Source: Escherichia coli (GTDB lineage: Bacteria; Pseudomonadota; Gammaproteobacteria; Enterobacterales; Enterobacteriaceae). From it: 64,000 nucleotides of DNA. Position numbers and translations under genes: made by a program. Below the pieces are notes generated by a model. That model searched no databases. It saw only the letters and a list, made by a program, of their open reading frames with translations, and was not told where the DNA came from. The stretch lies in the NCBI RefSeq assembly GCF_016903815.1, contig NZ_CP069973.1; one strand, written 5' to 3'. Shown here piece by piece: positions 220-28,700 of the stretch; the first letter of the stretch is position 1, and every line of letters begins with the position of its first letter.

Positions 220-872
220 TTTTTTTCTCGTCTTTCTGGTTTGATGTCATTGAGCTATAAAGTAGTCAATAAACAATATTGACCGATCGTCTAATAATCA
301 ACGCTGATATCCCAGTGTTTGTCAGAAAACAAGAATTGCTTTTCTTTTCATCAGGTTAAATCTATCTTTTTTGATTTATATCAAACCAGATTCGGTCTTC
401 AATTATATAGGCATCAATGTTAGCGGTCCTACAAGATACGCAGTCGATGCTTCAGGGCGTACTGATGAAATAAAACAAGTAGGCTGAGATTAGTTGGTCT
501 GCTCATCGCTCACAGCGGACCTTCAGCTTCGTTAGCCAAGCGCTGACATAGTTACCGATGTAGCGTGTTAATCTGTCGGGAGCATAGCCGAAATCACTTA
601 ATCCATTAGACTTCACCTAAAACTGCAAAAATTACCGTCTTTGTCACACTCACCGAGTTTAATCAAACTAACACTGTACATAGTGCGAACAAGAGCCAAC
701 CAGAAAGACTGTTCAGCATCAACAGTGAAGTTTTTCCCCGCCACTTCCCCGCAATTCCTCCGCAGTTTTCCCACTAGAGAGTTCGACACATCCCTTGCAT
801 ACCAACGCTTTGATTCAAATCTCGGTAGTGCATCCAATTAGTAGAATATGTGTTTTTCGATAAATGCTCCGA

Positions 873-1232
873 TCACTTTTTCGTGGATCTCAACTGAGCG
901 TGAGAAGCAGATTGTTTACGAGCCAACCGCTTAATGTGGGTGCGTAGCGTCAGATTATTACGCTCAATGCGTTGGGTGAATATTTTGCCGGTCAGATGCT
1001 TATTCTTCGGCACCACCCGGCCATAGCTGTCCCAGTCATCGCTGGTGAGCATGCCGATGTTGAAGGGTGTAAGCAGTGCCAGTAGCTCCCGGCACGTTTG
1101 ATTGGTTCGGGGACCAAAAGTGTAGGCCAGTACACCGCCTGTTTTGGTGTTGTACGCGTACCAGAGCCAGTGTAGCCGGGCTTTACTGCCAACGTAGCTC
1201 CATTGCTCATCAAGCTCGCAGATAAGCGCCAC
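873..1232 (-). CDS. insB: IS1-family InsB-like transposase segment (probably expressed as InsAB' by -1 frameshift, or N-terminally truncated)
   Basis: 119 aa ORF ...CELDEQWSYVGSKARLHWLWYAYNTKTGGVLAYTFGPRT... matches the IS1 InsB catalytic region (compare [25 protein letters not shown]...). Confidence 0.7.
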   Translation of the reverse strand: MALICELDEQWSYVGSKARLHWLWYAYNTKTGGVLAYTFGPRTNQTCRELLALLTPFNIGMLTSDDWDSYGRVVPKNKHLTGKIFTQRIERNNLTLRTHIKRLARKQSASHAQLRSTKK

Positions 1233-1258
1233 ATCAGCATGGGCAACAGGCGAAGAAG

Positions 1259-1531
1259 TTATTTGCGTTGGCGCGAGTTTTTTAAAGTCCGGATGATGGT
1301 GTTAATACCAATTTTCAGTGTCCTGGCGGTATCGCGAACCCCGGCACCATTAAAGGCCATTTCAGTGATCATCTCTTTCATACCCGGCTTACGTGCTTGA
1401 TAAGTATAAGTGAGCTGAAACACACGGTGGCAGTCACGGCAGCGAAATCTGTCACGGCCTTTAGGGTTCTGACCATGGCGGTAAACCTGAGCTGACTGAC
1501 AACGGGGACAATGAATATTAACGCTGGCCAT
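1259..1531 (-). CDS. insA: IS1-family InsA-like protein (zinc-finger/HTH transposition regulator)
   Basis: 90 aa MASVNIHCPRCQSAQVYRHGQNPKGRDRFRCRDCHRVFQLTYTYQARKPG...; CxxC...CxxC pattern and colinearity with canonical IS1 InsA. Confidence 0.8.
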   Translation of the reverse strand: MASVNIHCPRCQSAQVYRHGQNPKGRDRFRCRDCHRVFQLTYTYQARKPGMKEMITEMAFNGAGVRDTARTLKIGINTIIRTLKNSRQRK

Positions 1532-1783: not shown

Positions 1784-3253
1784 ATGCATATCGATTCGAC
1801 TGAAAAAAATAATAAACAAAAGTTGGGCTTGCTTGCGCTAACATCCATTGTCGTGAGCTCGATGATCGGCAGCGGCGTTGACGGACTCCCCCAGAATATG
1901 GCGGAGAATTCTGCCGTGGGCCCGGTGGCGATAGCATGGATAGTCTGTGGTATCGGCATGTTTTTCATCTCCAGAACTTTTATCGTGCTGTCAAACATTA
2001 GACCTGATCTCCAGTCAGGAGTTTATATGTATGCCCGGGAAGGGTTCGGCCGATTTACGGCATTTAACGTCGCCTGGGGCTACTGGCTGATGACTATATT
2101 CAGCAACGTCGCCTTTGCCATTATGGTGATGGATACGCTGAATTATTTCTTACCAGGTGATTTCAAGGGAGGGAACAATATTCCTTCCGTTATCGGTGCC
2201 TCTTTGCTGATATGGGGATTCAACTTTTTAGTCCTCTCCGGTACCCGCATTGCCGGGTCGATTAACATCGTCGGCACGCTGGCCAAACTGATCCCGCTGG
2301 TGGCCTTTATTATTATTCTCATGCTGTTTATGAAGTACACCACGTTCGCAGATAACGTCTGGGGGCACAGCGCGAGTAAGGCCAGTCAGGACCTAGGCTC
2401 TATTTTCTCACAGGTAACTTCACCGCTTAGCGTGGCACTCTGGAGCTTCATCGGCGTTGAGGGGGCTGTCGCTCTTTCCGGTCGGGCCAAAAATAAACGC
2501 GACGTGGGTAAAGCCACATTCATTGGCTTCGTTGTATCACTGATTATCTGTCTGCTGGTCTCCATCCTGCCGTTTGGCGTGCTGACTCAACATGAGCTCA
2601 GCGCAATTCCAACCCCATCCACCGCCGGTATTCTGAAGATTGTTGTCGGTGAATGGGGGAAGATTATGATTATCTTGGGGGTGCTGATTTCGGTGCTTAC
2701 CAGCTGGCTGGCGTGGACCATCATCTGCGCCGAACTGCCTATGGTGGCCGCGCAGAACGGCACATTCCCGAAACCGTTCAGCAAAAAAAATGTGAAGGGT
2801 TCGGCCTCGGTTTCGCTTTATATAAGCAGTGCGTTTATGCAAATCGTCGTACTTCTGGTCTACTTTTCTAACGATGCCTGGCTTGCAATGCTGGCTATCT
2901 CTACCCTGACCGTTTTACCTGCGTATTTAATGACCACGGCATACCTGTTTAAACTATGTATTAGCGGCGAGTATGCCAGCTATACCACGAATCACAGCCG
3001 CAGCGCCGCGCTGGTCAGCAGTATTATCGGCTTTGTATTCTGCCTGTTTATGTTCTACGCCAGTGAAATCAAATATCTGGCGATGGTTCCGGTGCTGCTT
3101 ACGCTGGGCGTGCCCCTGTTTATCTGGGCAAGAAAAAAAGACGATCGCGCAGATAAAATATTTACGCTACGCGAACTGGCATTTTTTATTTTACTGCTGG
3201 TCCTCGACATCATTGTTTTTATTCTACTGCATTATAAAACGATACATTTTTAG
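1784..3253 (+). CDS. ArcD/YdgI-type basic amino acid/polyamine antiporter (APC superfamily, APA family), copy 1
   Basis: 489 aa; ATG at 1784 with AAGAG RBS; N-terminal KLGLLALTSIVVSSMIGSGV..LPQNMA motif and GVEGAVALSGRAKNKRDVGKAT motif typical of ArcD/YdgI arginine:ornithine-type exchangers; multiple hydrophobic helices. Confidence 0.85.
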   Translation: MHIDSTEKNNKQKLGLLALTSIVVSSMIGSGVDGLPQNMAENSAVGPVAIAWIVCGIGMFFISRTFIVLSNIRPDLQSGVYMYAREGFGRFTAFNVAWGYWLMTIFSNVAFAIMVMDTLNYFLPGDFKGGNNIPSVIGASLLIWGFNFLVLSGTRIAGSINIVGTLAKLIPLVAFIIILMLFMKYTTFADNVWGHSASKASQDLGSIFSQVTSPLSVALWSFIGVEGAVALSGRAKNKRDVGKATFIGFVVSLIICLLVSILPFGVLTQHELSAIPTPSTAGILKIVVGEWGKIMIILGVLISVLTSWLAWTIICAELPMVAAQNGTFPKPFSKKNVKGSASVSLYISSAFMQIVVLLVYFSNDAWLAMLAISTLTVLPAYLMTTAYLFKLCISGEYASYTTNHSRSAALVSSIIGFVFCLFMFYASEIKYLAMVPVLLTLGVPLFIWARKKDDRADKIFTLRELAFFILLLVLDIIVFILLHYKTIHF

Positions 3254-3357
3254 TCCAGATTAATTCACAGCAAGTTAAGGTGACGATAATGTCTGTTTCT
3301 TGGGCATGACATCCTCACAGTTAAATACTATCTGAACAGTAACAGTGGAGACACCTA

Positions 3358-5727
3358 ATGAAATTTAACCACAATCTTTTATTTATTTCCTCACAATATC
3401 TTGATGGCGACAACCCTTCGCAGCAGGTACTGGAAGAGCTTCAAACCGAACTCGCGGAACGCGGTTTTAAAATTCATATCACGCACCAGATCTCTGATGG
3501 ATTAAAAATCATCGAAAAAAGCCCCCAATACAGCGGGATTGGTTTTTACTGGGAGCCAGACAATCCGACCTTTGCAGAAGAGCTACAGCACTTTATCAGC
3601 ATATTCCGCAAAAGAAATGCCACGACGCCGCTGATAATTTTCTCAGAACAGAATATTACCGATCGTATCCCACTCGACGTCTTAAAAGAGGTCAGCGAAT
3701 ATGTTTATCTGTTCTCTGAATCCGCAGCCTTCACTGCCAATCGACTGTACTCCTTAGTCCACCGCTATGCGGATAAGCTTCTTCCTCCCTACTTTAAAAC
3801 CCTTAAGGACTTTACCGAGGACGGTGACTATTACTGGGACTGCCCGGGGCATATGGGGGGAATGGCCTATCTGAAACATCCTGTTGGCATTGAGTTCATT
3901 AACTTCTTTGGCGAAAACATGATGCGCGCTGATATTGGCGTGGCTACCGCGGAGATGGGGGATTATCTGATCCACGCCGGACCGCCTAAAAAATCGGAAG
4001 AAATTGCGGCCCGACTGTTTGGCTCTGATTGGACCTTCTACGGTGTTTCCGGCTCATCGGGGTCGAACCGTATTGTGGCCCAGGCTGCGGTTGGCGCAGA
4101 TGAAATTGCCATTATTGACCGAAATTGCCACAAGTCACTTAATCATGGCCTGACCTTGTCTCAGGCAAGGCCGGTTTACCTGAAACCTACCCGCAACGCG
4201 TGGGGGCTGATTGGGCCTATCCCGACCGGACGCCTGAAGAAGGCCAGTATTGATGCGCTGGTGGCAAACAGCCGACTGGCATCTGGTGCGGTCAGCCAGT
4301 CCCCGTCCTACGCCGTGGTAACCAACTGCACCTATGATGGCTTCTGTTATAACGTGAACGATGTAGTCAGACACCTGGGTGAAAGCGCACCGCGCATCCA
4401 TTTTGATGAAGCATGGTATGCCTATGCGCGTTTCCATCCGCTATACCAGAGTCGCTATGCAATGGACGCGGAGGAAACGCCAAATCGTCCAACCCTATTC
4501 GCCGTACAGTCCACCCATAAAATGCTGCCCTCACTCTCCATGGCCTCAATGATTCATGTGAAGAAAAGCGATCGCGCGCCGCTTAATTTCGATGACTTTA
4601 ACGATGCCTTTATGATGCACGGCACGACCTCACCCTACTACCCGATCATTGCATCAATTGATGTGGCAGTAAGCATGATGGAGGGTGAATCCGGTTATTC
4701 GCTTGTGCAGGAGTCAATTGAAGAAGCGATTGCCTTCCGTAAAGCCGTGGTCAGCGTCAAGCGCCAGCTCCAGGAGCAGGAAGGTGGTGACGCCTGGTTC
4801 TTCGATGTGCTTCAGCCAACCGAAGTGCAGGACAGCGATTCTGGGCAGCGATACAGTTTTGAAGAGGCACCCGTATCGCTGCTGAGCCACAGCGCCGACT
4901 GCTGGTCGCTGCGCTCCGGTGAGCGCTGGCACGGTTTTGCCGATGATGATCTGGTCGAAACCAACAGTATGCTCGATCCAGTAAAAGTGACCCTGACTTG
5001 TCCAGGGATCGGCCCGAAGGGAGAATACCAGAAAAACGGTATTCCGGGATATTTGCTGACCCGTTTTCTCGATGACCGTCGCATTGAAATTGCCCGTACT
5101 GGTGACTACACCGTGCTGATCCTGTTCTCCGTCGGCATCACCAAAGGCAAATGGGGAACTCTGATTGAAAGCCTGCTGGCCTTTAAAAAGCATTACGACA
5201 ATGACGATCTGGCCACAGATGCTATCCCGTCGCTGAAAGCGCATTCTCCACACTACGACACGCTAACCCTCAAGGAGCTATGTCAGATAATGCATGAAAA
5301 AATGGATGAGCTGGAGCTGATGTCGCATATCAACGACGCGGTAAACACCGATCCGGAACCAGTTATGACCCCGGCAGAAGCCTATCAGAAAGTCGTACGC
5401 TACAAAACCGAGCATATCCGGCTGGATGATTTTAGCGGCAGAATTGCCGCCAGCATGCTCGTCCCATATCCCCCAGGCATTCCTGTACTGATGCCGGGCG
5501 AACGGATGCCGCAAGGTAACAAGGGCATTATTGGCTATCTGCGCGCCCTGCAGGAATTCGATAAGCAATTCCCAGGTTTTGAACATGAGATCCAGGGCGT
5601 TAACGTCGATGAAGACGGGGACTTCTGGGTCAGAGCGATTGTGGAAGAAGAACGCGATGGGCAGTCGCTACCCGGCCACATAACCTTTAAACGCCAGGTC
5701 TCTGGTATTAAAAAGGGCCGCCAGTAG
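3358..5727 (+). CDS. PLP-dependent Orn/Lys/Arg decarboxylase, AdiA/CadA/SpeF family (fold-I, with N-terminal wing domain); substrate not assignable from sequence
   Basis: 789 aa; GGAGA RBS before ATG 3358; conserved blocks shared with E. coli AdiA (YWDCPGHMGG, SGSSGSNRIV, DRNCHKSLNHGL, VVTNCTYDGFCYN, HFDEAWYAYARF, STHKML with the PLP-binding Lys, ASIDVAVSMMEG, MLDPVKVTL, KGKWGTL, PYPPGIPVLMPGE, FPGFEHE). Longer than AdiA (755 aa) with a distinct C-terminal tail. Confidence 0.9.
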   Translation: MKFNHNLLFISSQYLDGDNPSQQVLEELQTELAERGFKIHITHQISDGLKIIEKSPQYSGIGFYWEPDNPTFAEELQHFISIFRKRNATTPLIIFSEQNITDRIPLDVLKEVSEYVYLFSESAAFTANRLYSLVHRYADKLLPPYFKTLKDFTEDGDYYWDCPGHMGGMAYLKHPVGIEFINFFGENMMRADIGVATAEMGDYLIHAGPPKKSEEIAARLFGSDWTFYGVSGSSGSNRIVAQAAVGADEIAIIDRNCHKSLNHGLTLSQARPVYLKPTRNAWGLIGPIPTGRLKKASIDALVANSRLASGAVSQSPSYAVVTNCTYDGFCYNVNDVVRHLGESAPRIHFDEAWYAYARFHPLYQSRYAMDAEETPNRPTLFAVQSTHKMLPSLSMASMIHVKKSDRAPLNFDDFNDAFMMHGTTSPYYPIIASIDVAVSMMEGESGYSLVQESIEEAIAFRKAVVSVKRQLQEQEGGDAWFFDVLQPTEVQDSDSGQRYSFEEAPVSLLSHSADCWSLRSGERWHGFADDDLVETNSMLDPVKVTLTCPGIGPKGEYQKNGIPGYLLTRFLDDRRIEIARTGDYTVLILFSVGITKGKWGTLIESLLAFKKHYDNDDLATDAIPSLKAHSPHYDTLTLKELCQIMHEKMDELELMSHINDAVNTDPEPVMTPAEAYQKVVRYKTEHIRLDDFSGRIAASMLVPYPPGIPVLMPGERMPQGNKGIIGYLRALQEFDKQFPGFEHEIQGVNVDEDGDFWVRAIVEEERDGQSLPGHITFKRQVSGIKKGRQ

Positions 5728-5745
5728 GCGGGGGAAAGAACAATA

Positions 5746-5771
5746 CCGTCGGATCGCCTGCAATCCGACGG
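5746..5771 (+). promoter_or_regulatory. Intercistronic stem-loop between the decarboxylase and the downstream antiporter (possible attenuator or mRNA processing/stability element)
   Basis: Inverted repeat CCGTCGGAT-cgcctgca-ATCCGACGG (9-bp stem) in the 74-bp spacer; no strong T-run follows. Confidence 0.4.
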
Positions 5772-5801
5772 CAATATTATAGAATAGCTGAGGGAAACGT
5801 T

Positions 5802-7301
5802 ATGGCAGAGCAATCTTCAGATGTAAAAAATAGTGACAATAGCGCCGGAGGACATAAGCTGGGGCTTATATCCCTCATCGCTATTGTCGTTAGCTCCATG
5901 CTGGGAGGCGGCGTTTTCAGTCTGCCGCAAAACACGGCGGCCTCTTCTGCACTAGGGCCAGTAATCATTGCATGGATTATTGCCGGGATCGGTATTTATT
6001 TTATCGCAAACTCCTTTCGCGTACTATCAGATCTGCGCCCGGACCTTCAGGCTGGAGTGTATATGTATGCCCAGGAAGGTTTTGGTTCCTTTATTGGCTT
6101 TAACGTCGCCTGGGGCTACTGGCTGATGACCGCATTTGGCAACGTTGCCTTTGCGGTAATTTTAATGGATGCTTTTAATCAGTTTATGCCGGGGGTTTTT
6201 ACGGATGGTAATAATCTGAACTCCATTATCTGCGGCTCAGTGCTGATCTGGGGCTATAATTTTCTTGTTCTGTCCGGGACGAAAGTGGCCGGATTTGTTA
6301 ACACCTTGGGAACCATCGCCAAGCTCGTCCCTCTGATCCTATTCGTATTACTGCTGGGTGTGCTGATCGATTATTCGGACCTGTTTAAAAACTTTTGGGG
6401 AGAATCACCCGCGATCCTCAGTGGCAACGGAAATGACGCCGCACCAGTATCGCTGCTGTCTCAGATTCTGGCACCGATGACCGTAACGCTCTGGGCCTTT
6501 ATTGGCGTCGAGGGAGCGGTTGTTCTATCCGGACGTGCCAAAAATAAACAGGACGTAGGGAAAGCCACACTGATCGGCTTTCTGCTGGCGCTAATTATTT
6601 ATATGTTAATGTCCATTCTGCCGTTCGGTGTAATGCCTCAGGCAGAACTAGCGCAGGTCAGTAACCCCTCTACCGCAGGCGTGCTCGCCCACGTTGTCGG
6701 TCAGTGGGGCGACTGGCTGATGAGCGCGGGGCTGATTATTTCTGTTCTGGCCGGCTGGCTTGCCTGGACCATGCTATGCGCTGAAATACCGATGGTAGCA
6801 GGACAGAAAGGCGCTTTCCCGCGCGCGTTTGCCCGAACGAACAGTAAACAGGCGGCCAATGTGTCACTGTGGGTTAGTAGCTTTGTGATGCAGGCGGCCA
6901 TGTTACTTGTTTATTTTTCAAATAATGCTTGGACCACCATGTATAATATCAGTGCGCTGATGGTTGTTCCGGCCTATATTACCACCACGCTGTATCTGAC
7001 CAGTATTTGCAGAAACGGAAAATATGATCAGTATGCAAAAAAAGGCCGCAGGCTGGCTTTGTCCAGCGGTGTTTTAGGCTCGCTATTCTGTCTGTTTATT
7101 CTTTACGCCAGCCAGATTGAGTATGTTGCATTAATTCCTATCCTGTTGACCTGTGGTCTGCCGGTCTTTATCTGGTCAAGAAAAGAAAAAAATGATGGTC
7201 AGCCGATATTTACCAAAAAAGAGCTGATTTATCTGATTATGCTGTTGCTGTGCGATATTATCGTCGTTGCCCTGTTTATTGGTGGATATTTAAAGGTATA
7301 A
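5802..7301 (+). CDS. ArcD/YdgI-type basic amino acid/polyamine antiporter (APA family), copy 2 (paralog of 1784..3253)
   Basis: 499 aa; GAGGGA RBS; same motifs as copy 1 (KLGLISLIAIVVSSMLGGGVFSLPQNTA, GVYMYAQEGFG, FNVAWGYWLMT, GVEGAVVLSGRAKNKQDVGKAT) with long collinear identity. Confidence 0.85.
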   Translation: MAEQSSDVKNSDNSAGGHKLGLISLIAIVVSSMLGGGVFSLPQNTAASSALGPVIIAWIIAGIGIYFIANSFRVLSDLRPDLQAGVYMYAQEGFGSFIGFNVAWGYWLMTAFGNVAFAVILMDAFNQFMPGVFTDGNNLNSIICGSVLIWGYNFLVLSGTKVAGFVNTLGTIAKLVPLILFVLLLGVLIDYSDLFKNFWGESPAILSGNGNDAAPVSLLSQILAPMTVTLWAFIGVEGAVVLSGRAKNKQDVGKATLIGFLLALIIYMLMSILPFGVMPQAELAQVSNPSTAGVLAHVVGQWGDWLMSAGLIISVLAGWLAWTMLCAEIPMVAGQKGAFPRAFARTNSKQAANVSLWVSSFVMQAAMLLVYFSNNAWTTMYNISALMVVPAYITTTLYLTSICRNGKYDQYAKKGRRLALSSGVLGSLFCLFILYASQIEYVALIPILLTCGLPVFIWSRKEKNDGQPIFTKKELIYLIMLLLCDIIVVALFIGGYLKV

Positions 7302-7443
7302 GTCCGAGTTAAATCTTTACTGGGCTAGTAATGCCGCCTTTTAAACAAGAAGGGCGGCAATCTTACTGAAATTAGTATGCTGCAAATCGGTAATGCTGCC
7401 AACTTACTGATTTAGTGTATGATGGTGATTTTAAGGTGCTTGC

Positions 7444-7719
7444 GTGGCTTCCATTTCCATCAGATGTCCTTCCTGCTCCGCTACTGAAGGCGTGGTGCGT
7501 AACGGCAAAAGCACTGCCGGACATCAGCGCTATCTCTGCTCTCACTGCCGTAAAACATGGCAACTGCAGTTCACTTACACCGCTTCTCAACCCGGTACGC
7601 ACCAGAAAATCATTGATATGGCCATGAATGGCGTTGGATGCCGGGCAACTGCCCGCATTATGGGCGTTGGCCTCAACACGATTTTACGTCACTTAAAAAA
7701 CTCAGGCCGCAGTCGGTAA
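7444..7719 (+). CDS. insA: IS1 InsA
   Basis: 91 aa [91 protein letters not shown]. Confidence 0.95.
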
Positions 7720-8141
7720 CCTCGCGCATACAGCCGGGCAGTGACGTCATCGTCTGCGCGGAAATGGGCGAACAGTGGGGCTATGTCGGGGCTAAATCGC
7801 GCCAGCGCTGGCTGTTTTACGCGTATGACAGGCTCCGGAAGACGGTTGTTGCGCACGTATTCGGTGAACGCACGATGGCGACGCTGGGGCGTCTTATGAG
7901 CCTGCTGTCACCCTTTGACGTGGTGATATGGATGACGGATGGCTGGCCGCTGTATGAATCCCGCCTGAAGGGAAAGCTGCACGTAATCAGCAAGCGATAT
8001 ACGCAGCGAATTGAGCGGCATAACCTGAATCTGAGGCAGCACCTGGCACGGCTGGGACGGAAGTCGCTGTCGTTCTCAAAATCGGTGGAGCTGCATGACA
8101 AAGTCATCGGGCATTATCTGAACATAAAACACTATCAATAA
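7638..8141 (+). CDS. insB: IS1 InsB (expressed as InsAB' fusion by frameshift)
   Basis: 167 aa ORF ...[40 protein letters not shown]...[10 protein letters not shown], canonical IS1 InsB. Confidence 0.95.
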
Positions 8142-8156
8142 GTTGGAGTCATTATC

Positions 8157-8949
8157 TAACCGTAGCGTTTATTACGCGCAGGTGACGCGTCCTGTTAATG
8201 TGCAAAGAATTGACTTACGAAGTCGGGTGAGGGCTTTCCATGCTCTCAGTCGTGGCGCAGCCGGTAGCCGTGCAATCAGTCAGATGTTGCGCCAGAGTAG
8301 CGTTGATGCAGGCCGGTGGCTGGCACGACGACTGATGCGGGAATGCGGGCTGACAAGTCGACAGATGGTTAAACATCACTACCGGGTCAACGAAGACAAA
8401 AGTCCGCCATTGCCAAATTTACTGAACCGGCAATTTCACCCCGCCGCACCAGACCGCGTCTGGTGCGGCGACATCAGTTTTATTCGCCTGCATGACAAAT
8501 GGTGTTAGCTCGCGCTCGTTGTTGATTTATATTCACGGCGGATTACCGGTTCAGCCCTCTCATTAACCGCTGATGCTGAGTTGGTGTGTAGGGCTTTGCG
8601 TAATGCACTGGAAACACGATCACGTGATGGCCGTCTGCTGTTTCATTCAGATCAAGGTGTTCAGTATAAAAGCAATAAATACAGAAAGTTACTCTGGCGT
8701 TATGGGGTAATGCAAAGTATGAGTTGCAGAGGGAATGGCCTGGATAATTCGCCGATGGAAAGAGTCTTTCGCAGCCTTAAAAATGAATGGCTTCCGAAAG
8801 GTGGTTATGGTGATTTTATCCATGCGGTACGTGATATAAACCAGTGGATTAATGGTTATTACAACGTTTATCGACCTCACACGAACAACGATGGTTTACC
8901 GCCTTGCTTACATGAAGAAAAGTGGAAACAGGTTATTCCGGTGTCCTGA
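8157..8949 (+). pseudogene. IS3-family transposase OrfB remnant: 5' part (OrfA and start of OrfB) removed by the IS1 insertion, plus an in-frame TAG at 8506-8508
   Basis: Single reading frame translates ...[49 protein letters not shown]...[11 protein letters not shown]...[13 protein letters not shown]...[15 protein letters not shown], collinear with IS3/IS2-type OrfB; the amber codon sits where family members have Tyr (WLYLAVV). 3' end of the element not precisely located (probably within ~40 bp after 8949). Confidence 0.8.
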
Positions 8950-9166
8950 TTTTGTGAACCACTACAATAATCCTTTTTCACAGACTTGTCAGCAGCCAGC
9001 ATTTATGTTCTTTTACCTGCGGGAATTTATCCGTCTGCCTGTCGGGACTACTCTGTCATACAGAAATCAGGTAGGAATAAATTGTAGTGGAAAGTCGATG
9101 TTTACCGGATGACTGATGCGCGCTTGTACACAGACAGTGTGTTTCAGTAATATGGAGAATAATGAA

Positions 9167-9667
9167 ATGAATAACACAGACACATTAGAAAAAATAATCA
9201 GACACCAAAAAAACAAAGACCCCGCATATCCCTTTCGGGAACATTTGTTGATGCAGCTCTGTATTCGCACAAATAAAAGAATGCAGGATAATATATCTGA
9301 ATTTCTGGGGGCGTATGGAATAAATCACTCAGCATATATGGTTCTCACCACATTATTCGCAGCGGAGAACCATTGTCTGTCACCTTCAGAGATAAGCCAG
9401 AAACTTCAGTTTACCAGAACTAATATTACCCGCATTACAGATTTTTTAGAAAAAGCCGGATATGTAAAAAGGACGGATAGCAGGGAGGATCGCCGTGCTA
9501 AAAAAATCAGTCTGACATCTGAAGGTATGTTTTTTATTCAGAGGCTCACTCTTGCACAAAGCATGTATCTGAAAGAAATCTGGGATTATCTGACTCATGA
9601 TGAACAGGAACTGTTTGAAGTCATTAATAAAAAATTACTGGCACATTTTTCTGATGCCAGCTCATAA
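9167..9667 (+). CDS. MarR-family transcriptional regulator, EmrR/MprA-like (possibly a PapX/SfaX-type 17-kDa regulator)
   Basis: ORF 9116..9667; likely start ATG 9167 after GGAGA. Sequence ...YPFREHLLMQLCIRTNKRM...GINHSAYMVLTTLFAAENHCLSPSEISQKLQFTRTNITRITDFLEKAGYVKRTDSREDRRAKKISLTSEG... aligns with EmrR (winged-helix region [28 protein letters not shown]). Surrounded by AT-rich DNA. Confidence 0.8.
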   Translation: MNNTDTLEKIIRHQKNKDPAYPFREHLLMQLCIRTNKRMQDNISEFLGAYGINHSAYMVLTTLFAAENHCLSPSEISQKLQFTRTNITRITDFLEKAGYVKRTDSREDRRAKKISLTSEGMFFIQRLTLAQSMYLKEIWDYLTHDEQELFEVINKKLLAHFSDASS

Positions 9668-10133
9668 AGTGCGAAATATCTGAGGATGCTGGATAGCTTC
9701 AGGCAAGAGAATAATGATTCTTGCAGATGTGTTTTTCCGGATACAAAAACAAAAGTAAAAAATTGCAGCGCCAGGCCACCTTTCAAAGCAGGGAGGCTTG
9801 TACCGCGTCGAAAATTTCAGCCAGTTAATGTAATTGTCTGAACCAGGCACTTCGCCCGGGCAGGAGAAGGAGCGTGGTTGCGGTCATCCTGTATACTGAA
9901 GTCGTTATGAAGGAATAATACAAATAATTGCCCGTTTTCTCTGTACGATAGAGGCAGGTGTGTATGATTGCATCACTATGTTTTTGTGATATAAAAAACT
10001 AAATGGTGAGATATGCATTTTAAAATATAACAAAAATCACCATGAAATAAGAATAATTATCCACGGAGAACATAAACTGCAGACTGTTACAATGCATGCT
10101 GTTCATCTTGACAATGTCGGTAATGACTCCAAC

Positions 10134-10637
10134 TTATTGATAGTGTTTTATGTTCAGATAATGCCCGATGACTTTGTCATGCAGCTCCACCGATTTTGAG
10201 AACGACAGCGACTTCCGTCCCAGCCGTGCCAGGTGCTGCCTCAGATTCAGGTTATGCCGCTCAATTCGCTGCGTATATCGCTTGCTGATTACGTGCAGCT
10301 TTCCCTTCAGGCGGGATTCATACAGCGGCCAGCCATCCGTCATCCATATCACCACGTCAAAGGGTGACAGCAGGCTCATAAGACGCCCCAGCGTCGCCAT
10401 CGTGCGTTCACCGAATACGTGCGCAACAACCGTCTTCCGGAGCCTGTCATACGCGTAAAACAGCCAGCGCTGGCGCGATTTAGCCCCGACATAGCCCCAC
10501 TGTTCGCCCATTTCCGCGCAGACGATGACGTCACTGCCCGGCTGTATGCGCGAGGTTACCGACTGCGGCCTGAGTTTTTTAAGTGACGTAAAATCGTGTT
10601 GAGGCCAACGCCCATAATGCGGGCAGTTGCCCGGCAT
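10134..10637 (-). CDS. insB: IS1 InsB
   Basis: 167 aa, identical in translation to the InsB at 7638..8141. Confidence 0.95.
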
Positions 10638-10831
10638 CCAACGCCATTCATGGCCATATCAATGATTTTCTGGTGCGTACCGGGTTGAGAAGCGGTGTAA
10701 GTGAACTGCAGTTGCCATGTTTTACGGCAGTGAGAGCAGAGATAGCGCTGATGTCCGGCAGTGCTTTTGCCGTTACGCACCACGCCTTCAGTAGCTGAAC
10801 AGGAGGGACAGCTGATAGAAACAGAAGCCAC
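10556..10831 (-). CDS. insA: IS1 InsA
   Basis: 91 aa [37 protein letters not shown]..., canonical InsA. Confidence 0.95.
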
Positions 10832-11360
10832 TGGAGCACCTCAAAAACACCATCATACACTAAATCAGTAAGTTGGCAGCATCACCCAATCTGCTGACAG
10901 ACGAAGATAATGAACCCGTTATGGTTTTTAACGGAGAGAGGAATGTACTGGCAGACAGTCTGAAACCACAGCCTCTGATTCTTCCGGTCAAGGGAAAATA
11001 AGCGTAATGTTCATCACCAGATTATGTACGATGAGTTTTCCACTGTTTATAGCAATTATCTTGCTAATAACCAGACAGGAGTAACCAGACCAACCGAAAA
11101 CACCGGGAAGGTGATTACCCGCTGGCAGAGGAAATCCGGTTTTTTTTGATGTCAGCCATAACGTGTTTGACAATAAAGCATCATGAAAGGGTGTTAATGA
11201 GTCCATGGGATAATTCATAAAAATAATTTACTGTGTTATCCTTTTCAAAAGAAATATTCAGAAGATAACCCCTGGCTGACAACCAGGGGAAGGGGGCATT
11301 AACAGTGTTATTATTGGTGAATAAATTATTACTTGTGTGCAGGATACACTAATGCAATAT

Positions 11361-27994: not shown

Positions 27995-28700
27995 GTGCAC
28001 AGAAAACCCCCAGCTAGGCTGGGGGTTCCGGAAAGCTTTCAGCTTTGAGCCAGTTATTAAAACCCCTTTTGATTTGTTAAAACACCTTGCGGTCTGGCAA
28101 CTGCAAGTGTCAAACAAGAAATCAAAAGGGGGTCCCAATGGGGAACGAAAAGAGCTTAGCGCACACCCGATGGAACTGTAAATATCACATAGTTTTTGCG
28201 CCAAAATACCGAAGACAGGTGTTCTACAGAGAGAAGCGTAGAGCAATAGGCAGTATTTTGAGAAAGCTGTGTGAGTGGAAAAGCGTACGGATTCTGGAAG
28301 CTGAATGCTGTGCAGATCATATCCATATGCTTGTGGAGATCCCGCCCAAAATGAGCGTATCCGGGTTTATGGGATATCTGAAAGGGAAAAGCAGTCTGAT
28401 GCTTTACGAGCAGTTTGGTGATTTGAAATTCAAATACAGGAACAGGGAGTTCTGGTGCAGAGGGTACTACGTCGATACAGTGGGTAAGAACACGGCGAAG
28501 ATACAGGATTACATAAAGCACCAGCTTGAAGAGGATAAAATGGGAGAGCAGTTATCGATTCCCTATCCGGGCAGCCCGTTTACGGGCCGTAAGTAACGAA
28601 GTTGGATGCAAATGTCAGATCGTGTGCGCCTGTTAGGGCGCGGCTGGTAAGAGAGCCTTATAGGCGCATTTGAAAAACCTCCGGCTATGCCGGAGGATAT
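27995..28700 (+). mobile_element. IS200/IS605-family (IS200-like) insertion sequence; boundaries approximate (+/- ~15 bp)
   Basis: Single Y1-transposase gene flanked by subterminal hairpins: CCCCCAGC-tag-GCTGGGGG (28007-28025) and CCTCCGG-ctatg-CCGGAGG (28678-28696); ~700 bp overall, as expected for IS200. Confidence 0.8.
28138..28596 (+). CDS. tnpA: IS200-family transposase TnpA (Y1 HUH transposase)
   Basis: 152 aa MGNEKSLAHTRWNCKYHIVFAPKYRRQVFYREKRRAIGSILRKLCEWKSVRILEAECCADHIHMLVEIPPKMSVSGFMGYLKGKSSLMLYEQF...; HxH (HIHML) motif and catalytic Tyr region. Confidence 0.92.
   Translation: MGNEKSLAHTRWNCKYHIVFAPKYRRQVFYREKRRAIGSILRKLCEWKSVRILEAECCADHIHMLVEIPPKMSVSGFMGYLKGKSSLMLYEQFGDLKFKYRNREFWCRGYYVDTVGKNTAKIQDYIKHQLEEDKMGEQLSIPYPGSPFTGRK

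Follow-up and report, generated by a model that had tools for sequence, protein, structure and literature searches.

The insertion sequences of the IS3 family (IS3, IS911, IS150, IS2, and others) are the closest described systems to the locus analyzed here, and a strong cis-preference has been reported for their transposases. In a 64,000-nucleotide stretch of Escherichia coli DNA (referred to as the window), a remnant at positions 8157-8966 on the plus strand resembled these elements in the spacing of its DDE/rve residues, in an HTH_21 domain upstream of them, and in a CA terminus; its relatives, approximately 1.25 kb long with orfA, orfB, and an A-rich frameshift region, were also as in the family. 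Unlike the family, the remnant consisted only of the right 811 bp, contained an amber codon, and had no left repeat, orfA, or frameshift site. This locus is very probably a non-functional relic of an ISKpn37-like IS3-family element in the pheU-tRNA pathogenicity island of extraintestinal E. coli, and none of the observations spoke against this reading. The remnant was already known as an IS3-family pseudogene, since PGAP annotates 8158-8949 as [quoted passage not shown], and it is a neutral scar, that is, ordinary genomic debris.

Close relatives of the remnant were labelled "IS3-like element ISKpn37 family transposase" by PGAP, and tools of the MobileElementFinder type likewise use the name ISKpn37 for the nearest relatives. 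ISfinder regards two elements as one only when their identity is very high, and the protein bearing the name ISKpn37 (P0036) was only 62-63% identical to the remnant protein. Identity with ISKpn37 itself was therefore rejected, and this value points to a distinct member of the ISKpn37 subgroup. The closest intact proteins were unnamed IS3-family transposases from Citrobacter, E. coli, Serratia, and Salmonella: a protein search returned Citrobacter freundii at 94% identity (P0001), followed by E. coli, Serratia, Salmonella, and Enterobacter at 87-90% (89-90% for the E. coli and Serratia relatives and 89% for the Salmonella one), and the furthest relative was IS222 of Pseudomonas (50%).

When a full-length copy (L002:2554-3810) was searched against the whole window by BLAST, a single match was obtained, in which element positions 447-1257 corresponded to window 8157-8966 with 97.2% identity. 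The remnant is thus the right-hand 811 bp of an insertion sequence of approximately 1257 bp, and the left inverted repeat, orfA, the frameshift site, and the start of orfB are absent. Full-length copies in other E. coli genomes and in Salmonella were 1257 and 1253 bp long, started with TGTAGTGGATCGG..., and ended with ...CCACTACA. In the IS3 family, orfA and orfB overlap and are joined by a programmed -1 frameshift, and the corresponding part is deleted from the window copy. The relatives L002, L008, and L011 contained orfA (HTH_Tnp_1) and an A-rich GGAAAAAGAAATACTAAAG region, and PGAP annotated the full-length relatives either as fused proteins of 385-388 amino acids or with "programmed frameshift". 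A newly inserted IS3-family element would be flanked by a target duplication of 3-4 bp; no matching 3-bp repeats bordered the full-length relatives L002, L006, and L008, nor were any seen at the window copy, the left end of which is deleted.

The initial annotation had placed the remnant at 8157-8949. Its left boundary was exact: IS1 stops at 8156, and homology to the full-length copies starts from 8157. Its right boundary fell 17 bp short, because the right inverted repeat (27 bp, 8940-8966, plus strand, ending ...CCACTACA), a search for which had been recommended, overlaps the stop codon of orfB, so that the element extends to 8966, where homology among all copies also ends. The reverse complement of this repeat, TGTAGTGGTTCACAAAATCAGGACACC, matched the left repeat of the full-length copies, TGTAGTGGATCGGTAATTCAGGACACC, at 22 of 27 positions; the right repeat terminates in CA and the left repeat of the full-length copies starts with TG, i.e., the TG...CA ends of the IS3 family.

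Translation of window 8143-8952 on the plus strand gave 268 codons with one internal stop, compared with about 12 stops expected for a random sequence of equal length (3/64 per codon). The truncated orfB frame (8158-8949, plus strand) comprises 263 sense codons and a natural TGA stop at 8947-8949, with one amber codon inside. The conceptual protein, in which Tyr was put at the stop, matched Pfam rve (5e-24), rve_3, and HTH_21, and NCBIfam NF033516 "IS3 family transposase" with 245.1 bits (cut-off 160); the match covered profile positions 114-365 of 369, and the N-terminal third is therefore missing. All three catalytic codons were kept on the plus strand (residues numbered in the 263-residue protein): the first Asp (D105; Gly-Asp-Ile-Ser-Phe) at 8470-8472, in an alignment column at least 90% invariant; the second Asp (D165; His-Ser-Asp-Gln-Gly) at 8650-8652, 60 residues past the first; and Glu (E201; Ser-Pro-Met-Glu-Arg), invariant in the alignment, at 8758-8760, with 35 residues between Asp and Glu. 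Lys at seven residues after Glu (K208, codon 8779) was likewise invariant, and the arrangement was thus D-60-D-35-E followed by K at E+7, as in IS3-family DDE transposases. These results agree with the proposal that an IS3-family OrfB remnant occupies a nearly continuous frame broken by one TAG.

The amber codon lies at 8506-8508 (plus strand), twelve residues past the first catalytic Asp. In all 13 aligned homologues (50-94% identity) this column was occupied by Tyr, within the motif Trp-Cys-Tyr-Leu-Ala-Leu-Val-Val-Asp-Leu. The initial annotation had called for a change from either TAT or TAC; since the seven DNA copies with an intact codon (from Citrobacter, Salmonella, and the chromosome and plasmids of E. 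coli) all contained TAT, the change was TAT to TAG, a T-to-G transversion. A normal feature of the orfA/orfB frameshift site was considered as an explanation and rejected, the codon being located in the catalytic core at a position of Tyr in all homologues: TAG is at alignment columns 852-854, and the slippery site, at columns ~380-397, is about 460 nt upstream.

The distribution of the two alleles was estimated with a 41-mer centred on the codon, for which a central mismatch stops any megablast seed and thereby separates TAG from TAT. Of 5426 complete E. coli genomes, 571 carried the TAG allele: 337 were exact to the window-type 41-mer and 234 had one mismatch, the latter being consistent with a CAG variant seen in the copies examined from a second island locus, next to hlyCABD-cnf1 (see below). 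In four genomes the TAG 41-mer occurred at two places. The TAT allele was present in 80 of the 5426 genomes and was mostly plasmid-borne; the four TAT copies examined (NC101, pVirR1, MLI023K1, and pDEC5B-4) were all annotated as frameshifted or with other stops, and one E. coli genome yielded a 385-amino acid fused product (P0002). Since the chromosomal and plasmid copies inspected in E. coli were all annotated as pseudogenes, this IS lineage looks largely extinct in the species.

Inactivation by nonsense mutation had been described as clean, and this wording could not be upheld. Between the remnant frame and the intact Citrobacter copy there were 21 codon differences, 16 of them non-synonymous and 5 synonymous, whereas the Citrobacter and Salmonella copies, both intact, differed by 16 non-synonymous and 49 synonymous codons. 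The ratio of 16:5 against 16:49 suggests relaxed selection, and the missense changes included Arg to Cys and Cys to Gly within the conserved Ser-Arg-Arg-Gly-Asn-Cys-Leu-Asp-Asn motif. Judged from this neutral substitution pattern, the remnant has evolved without selection for function.

Full-length copies carrying TAG were found at another island locus, upstream of hlyCABD-cnf1, with an IS66 fragment on one side and a sensor kinase gene on the other; all four copies examined there contained the amber codon. In a study of ST131, the name "ISKpn37" was given to an element of GI-pheU that lies next to the histidine kinase, upstream of hlyCABD-cnf1 (PMC8386418), and this copy is the TAG-bearing paralogue found here. 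In the literature on "ISKpn37" only descriptive mentions were found, and the amber allele was not among them. Four further derived substitutions (8158, 8437, 8725, and 8737) were common to both loci and absent from all seven TAT copies, and two of these sites fall in the conserved Ser-Arg-Arg-Gly-Asn-Cys-Leu-Asp-Asn motif. An extra +1 G frameshift was present in the full-length TAG copies and absent from the window copy. The shared TAG together with the four derived sites indicates that the amber is not private to the copy next to papX, the gene downstream of the remnant, and the local event implied by the initial annotation is not borne out. The amber thus predates the divergence of the two island copies and, with it, the truncation by IS1; it probably also preceded one, if not both, of the insertions.

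Two routes may have brought TAG to both loci, namely, transposition of a defective element or gene conversion between the copies. Instead of being spread by transposition, TAG may have passed from one island copy to the other through homologous recombination or gene conversion, a reading to which we attach real, if tentative, weight. Both loci are in related pathogenicity islands, and L002 was mosaic: its positions 3400-3810 correspond to window 8560-8966, the last ~400 bp were identical, and all 22 differences fell in the first ~480 bp, while L003 and L004, from the same hly-cnf1 locus as L002, had differences from the window copy in their 3' part. The copies thus do recombine, and the mosaic suggests gene conversion between the two island copies. 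On the other hand, differences specific to the window lie on either side of TAG, at 8493 (13 bp before it) and at 8546 (38 bp after it), so that only a very short converted tract, or an old one, could have included the codon. It appears rather doubtful that the damaged, amber-bearing element reached the second locus by transposition, for which a sibling copy would have had to provide the transposase in trans in spite of the strong cis-preference of the family; if it did so, the shared TAG would represent natural non-autonomous mobilization of an IS3-family element inside pathogenicity islands.

The window was 100% identical to the chromosome of E. coli 7/2 at the pheU island, and also to many human, animal, and environmental isolates. 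Its first ~14 kb are the end of the island at the tRNA-Phe gene beside dicD-dsbD-cutA-dcuA, and the remainder is core chromosome as far as yjfM. Downstream of the remnant, 8967-9115 (plus strand) is the rest of a papG-papX intergenic region, i.e., the target DNA, with ~92% identity, from exactly 8967, to the uninterrupted papG-II...papX spacer (strain 755) and to the sfaY-sfaX spacer. The start of this match at 8967 places the insertion of the element in the papG-papX interval of a P-fimbrial operon. The adjacent gene (9116-9667, plus strand), an intact open reading frame of 183 amino acids annotated by PGAP as "MarR family transcriptional regulator", is of the papX type, and its counterpart is annotated as papX in other genomes. 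It is orphaned here: no pap operon was found upstream, the P-fimbrial operon having since been deleted.

On the other side, the remnant abuts a complete IS1 copy (IS1-a; 768 bp, 7389-8156, plus strand), which was identified by matching the IS1 end pattern (left end GGTAATGCTGCC..., right end ...GTCATTATC) and contains InsA and InsB open reading frames at 7444-7719 and 7638-8141 (PGAP: "IS1 family transposase, programmed frameshift"). Searches of the window with IS1 revealed a second copy of 768 bp (IS1-b; 10119-10886, minus strand), inverted relative to IS1-a; the two sequences showed 14 differences, almost all of them within the first 91 bp. These two copies bracket the remnant and papX. No 9-bp target duplication was found at either: the flanking 9-mers were ctgcaaatc and taaccgtag for IS1-a, and gacaatgtc and caatctgct for IS1-b. 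When two full-length copies were used as queries, the missing 5' 446 bp had no match in the whole 64-kb window.

A simple IS1 insertion deletes nothing and leaves both halves of the target together with a 9-bp repeat, and it is established that IS1 promotes adjacent deletions. The loss of the 5' part had been attributed to the insertion of IS1. The position of the break was confirmed, the missing sequence ending exactly at a complete IS1; simple insertion was not, since the lack of a target duplication and of the 446 bp from the window argues for a deletion or rearrangement. The locus resembled known IS1-mediated deletions and invertible segments in having IS1 at the break without a duplication, varied cut points, and both orientations; from these end states, we infer an IS1-associated deletion or IS1-IS1 recombination.

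In the APEC strains E18006 and E12053, the segment 7389-10886 was reversed relative to the flanks on both sides, which indicates inversion by IS1-IS1 recombination. IS1 might accordingly have inserted simply, with the 5' half moved by inversion between the inverted IS1 copies instead of being deleted; element positions 1-446 would then be located elsewhere in the genome at an IS1 end, followed by a duplication of TAACCGTAG. The segment between IS1-a and IS1-b does invert, but no other piece of the element was found within the 64-kb window, and the outer and inner flanks of the two IS1 copies formed no crossed 9-bp duplications of the kind left by insertion followed by inversion. We consider this course of events very unlikely, and a deletion or recombination associated with IS1 is the preferred reading of the left boundary.

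Of 5426 complete E. coli genomes, 936 contained the junction between the IS end and papX; with a junction-specific 80-mer, exactly the IS1/remnant junction seen in the window was counted in at least 268 genomes. A figure of 579 genomes for the IS1/IS3 junction, obtained at a query coverage of at least 80%, was rejected because the other locus was included, 809 of 1001 bp being sufficient to pass. In the ST131 strain MB1159 and in strain KY 1497, a different IS1 cuts the same remnant at window 8860, leaving 107 bp; this IS1 is of the IS1A type, is 97.5% identical to IS1-a, and has a truncated papA on its other side. Both strains retain the junction between the IS end and papX (window 8860-9116; L015 3984-4257; L019). 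The IS1 cuts at 8157 and 8860 are independent, nested truncations of one ancestral insertion. A shared right junction in combination with lineage-specific IS1 breakpoints places the IS3-type element first and IS1 later, in agreement with the order in the initial annotation.

An origin of the amber within the papX-site copy, after its insertion, was also weighed; in that case TAT would have changed to TAG a second time, in parallel, at the hly-cnf1 locus. The papX-site and hly-site copies differed at 22 of 810 positions, and from the TAT-bearing Citrobacter copy at 23 and 17, so that each island copy was about as distant from the other as from Citrobacter and the tree was nearly star-like, as a local origin would allow. 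Such an origin nevertheless needs the same T-to-G transversion twice, and it has to accommodate the four other derived substitutions common to both loci and absent from all seven TAT copies, as well as TAG in every one of the four hly-cnf1-locus copies; its probability is slight indeed. The preferred reading remains an amber that predates the divergence of the two island copies.

The history of the locus may have proceeded in three steps. An element would first have entered the spacer that separates papG from papX in the P-fimbrial operon, at 149 bp before papX. The lineage of the element would already have gained the TAT-to-TAG change and several damaging missense changes before the two copies diverged. 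An IS1-associated deletion or IS1-IS1 recombination would then have removed the left 446 bp and whatever lay upstream, leaving the right 811 bp fused to a complete IS1.

With its left repeat, orfA, and frameshift site lost and its orfB no longer open, the remnant can neither serve as a substrate for transposition nor produce a transposase. Production of the protein by readthrough or by a tyrosine-inserting amber suppressor, which would restore the wild-type residue, is virtually precluded: the catalytic Asp, Asp, and Glu codons are all kept, but the N-terminal DNA-binding part, the start, and the frameshift site are gone, damaging substitutions affect conserved residues in a neutral substitution pattern, and the full-length TAG copies carry the +1 G frameshift as well. 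The one plausible role left to it is passive: it offers homologous sequence to recombination and is carried along within the segment 7389-10886 between the two IS1 copies. Taken together, the IS-end/papX junction, the nested IS1 breakpoints, the amber allele, and the invertible segment provide a relative timeline of the decay of the pap/hly pathogenicity islands at pheU, and these same four features could help to type ExPEC lineages.

Several other features were observed in the window and next to it. The region 1784-7301, flanked by IS1 copies, contains a cluster of two antiporters, one for basic amino acids/polyamines and a second at 5802-7301, together with a decarboxylase of the Orn/Lys/Arg type (about 3358-5727), and looks like an accessory module of the acid-resistance type. 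In strain 7/2, the sequence just upstream of the window contains a truncated alcohol dehydrogenase gene and fragments of IS3-family, IS30, and other transposases, and this end of the island is therefore heavily scrambled. A third IS1 copy at about 838-1531 (minus strand) is annotated by PGAP as frameshifted, and its left end fails the IS1 end pattern within two mismatches. In the otherwise core part, an IS200C transposase gene is located at about 28138-28596 (plus strand), between ecnB and sugE.
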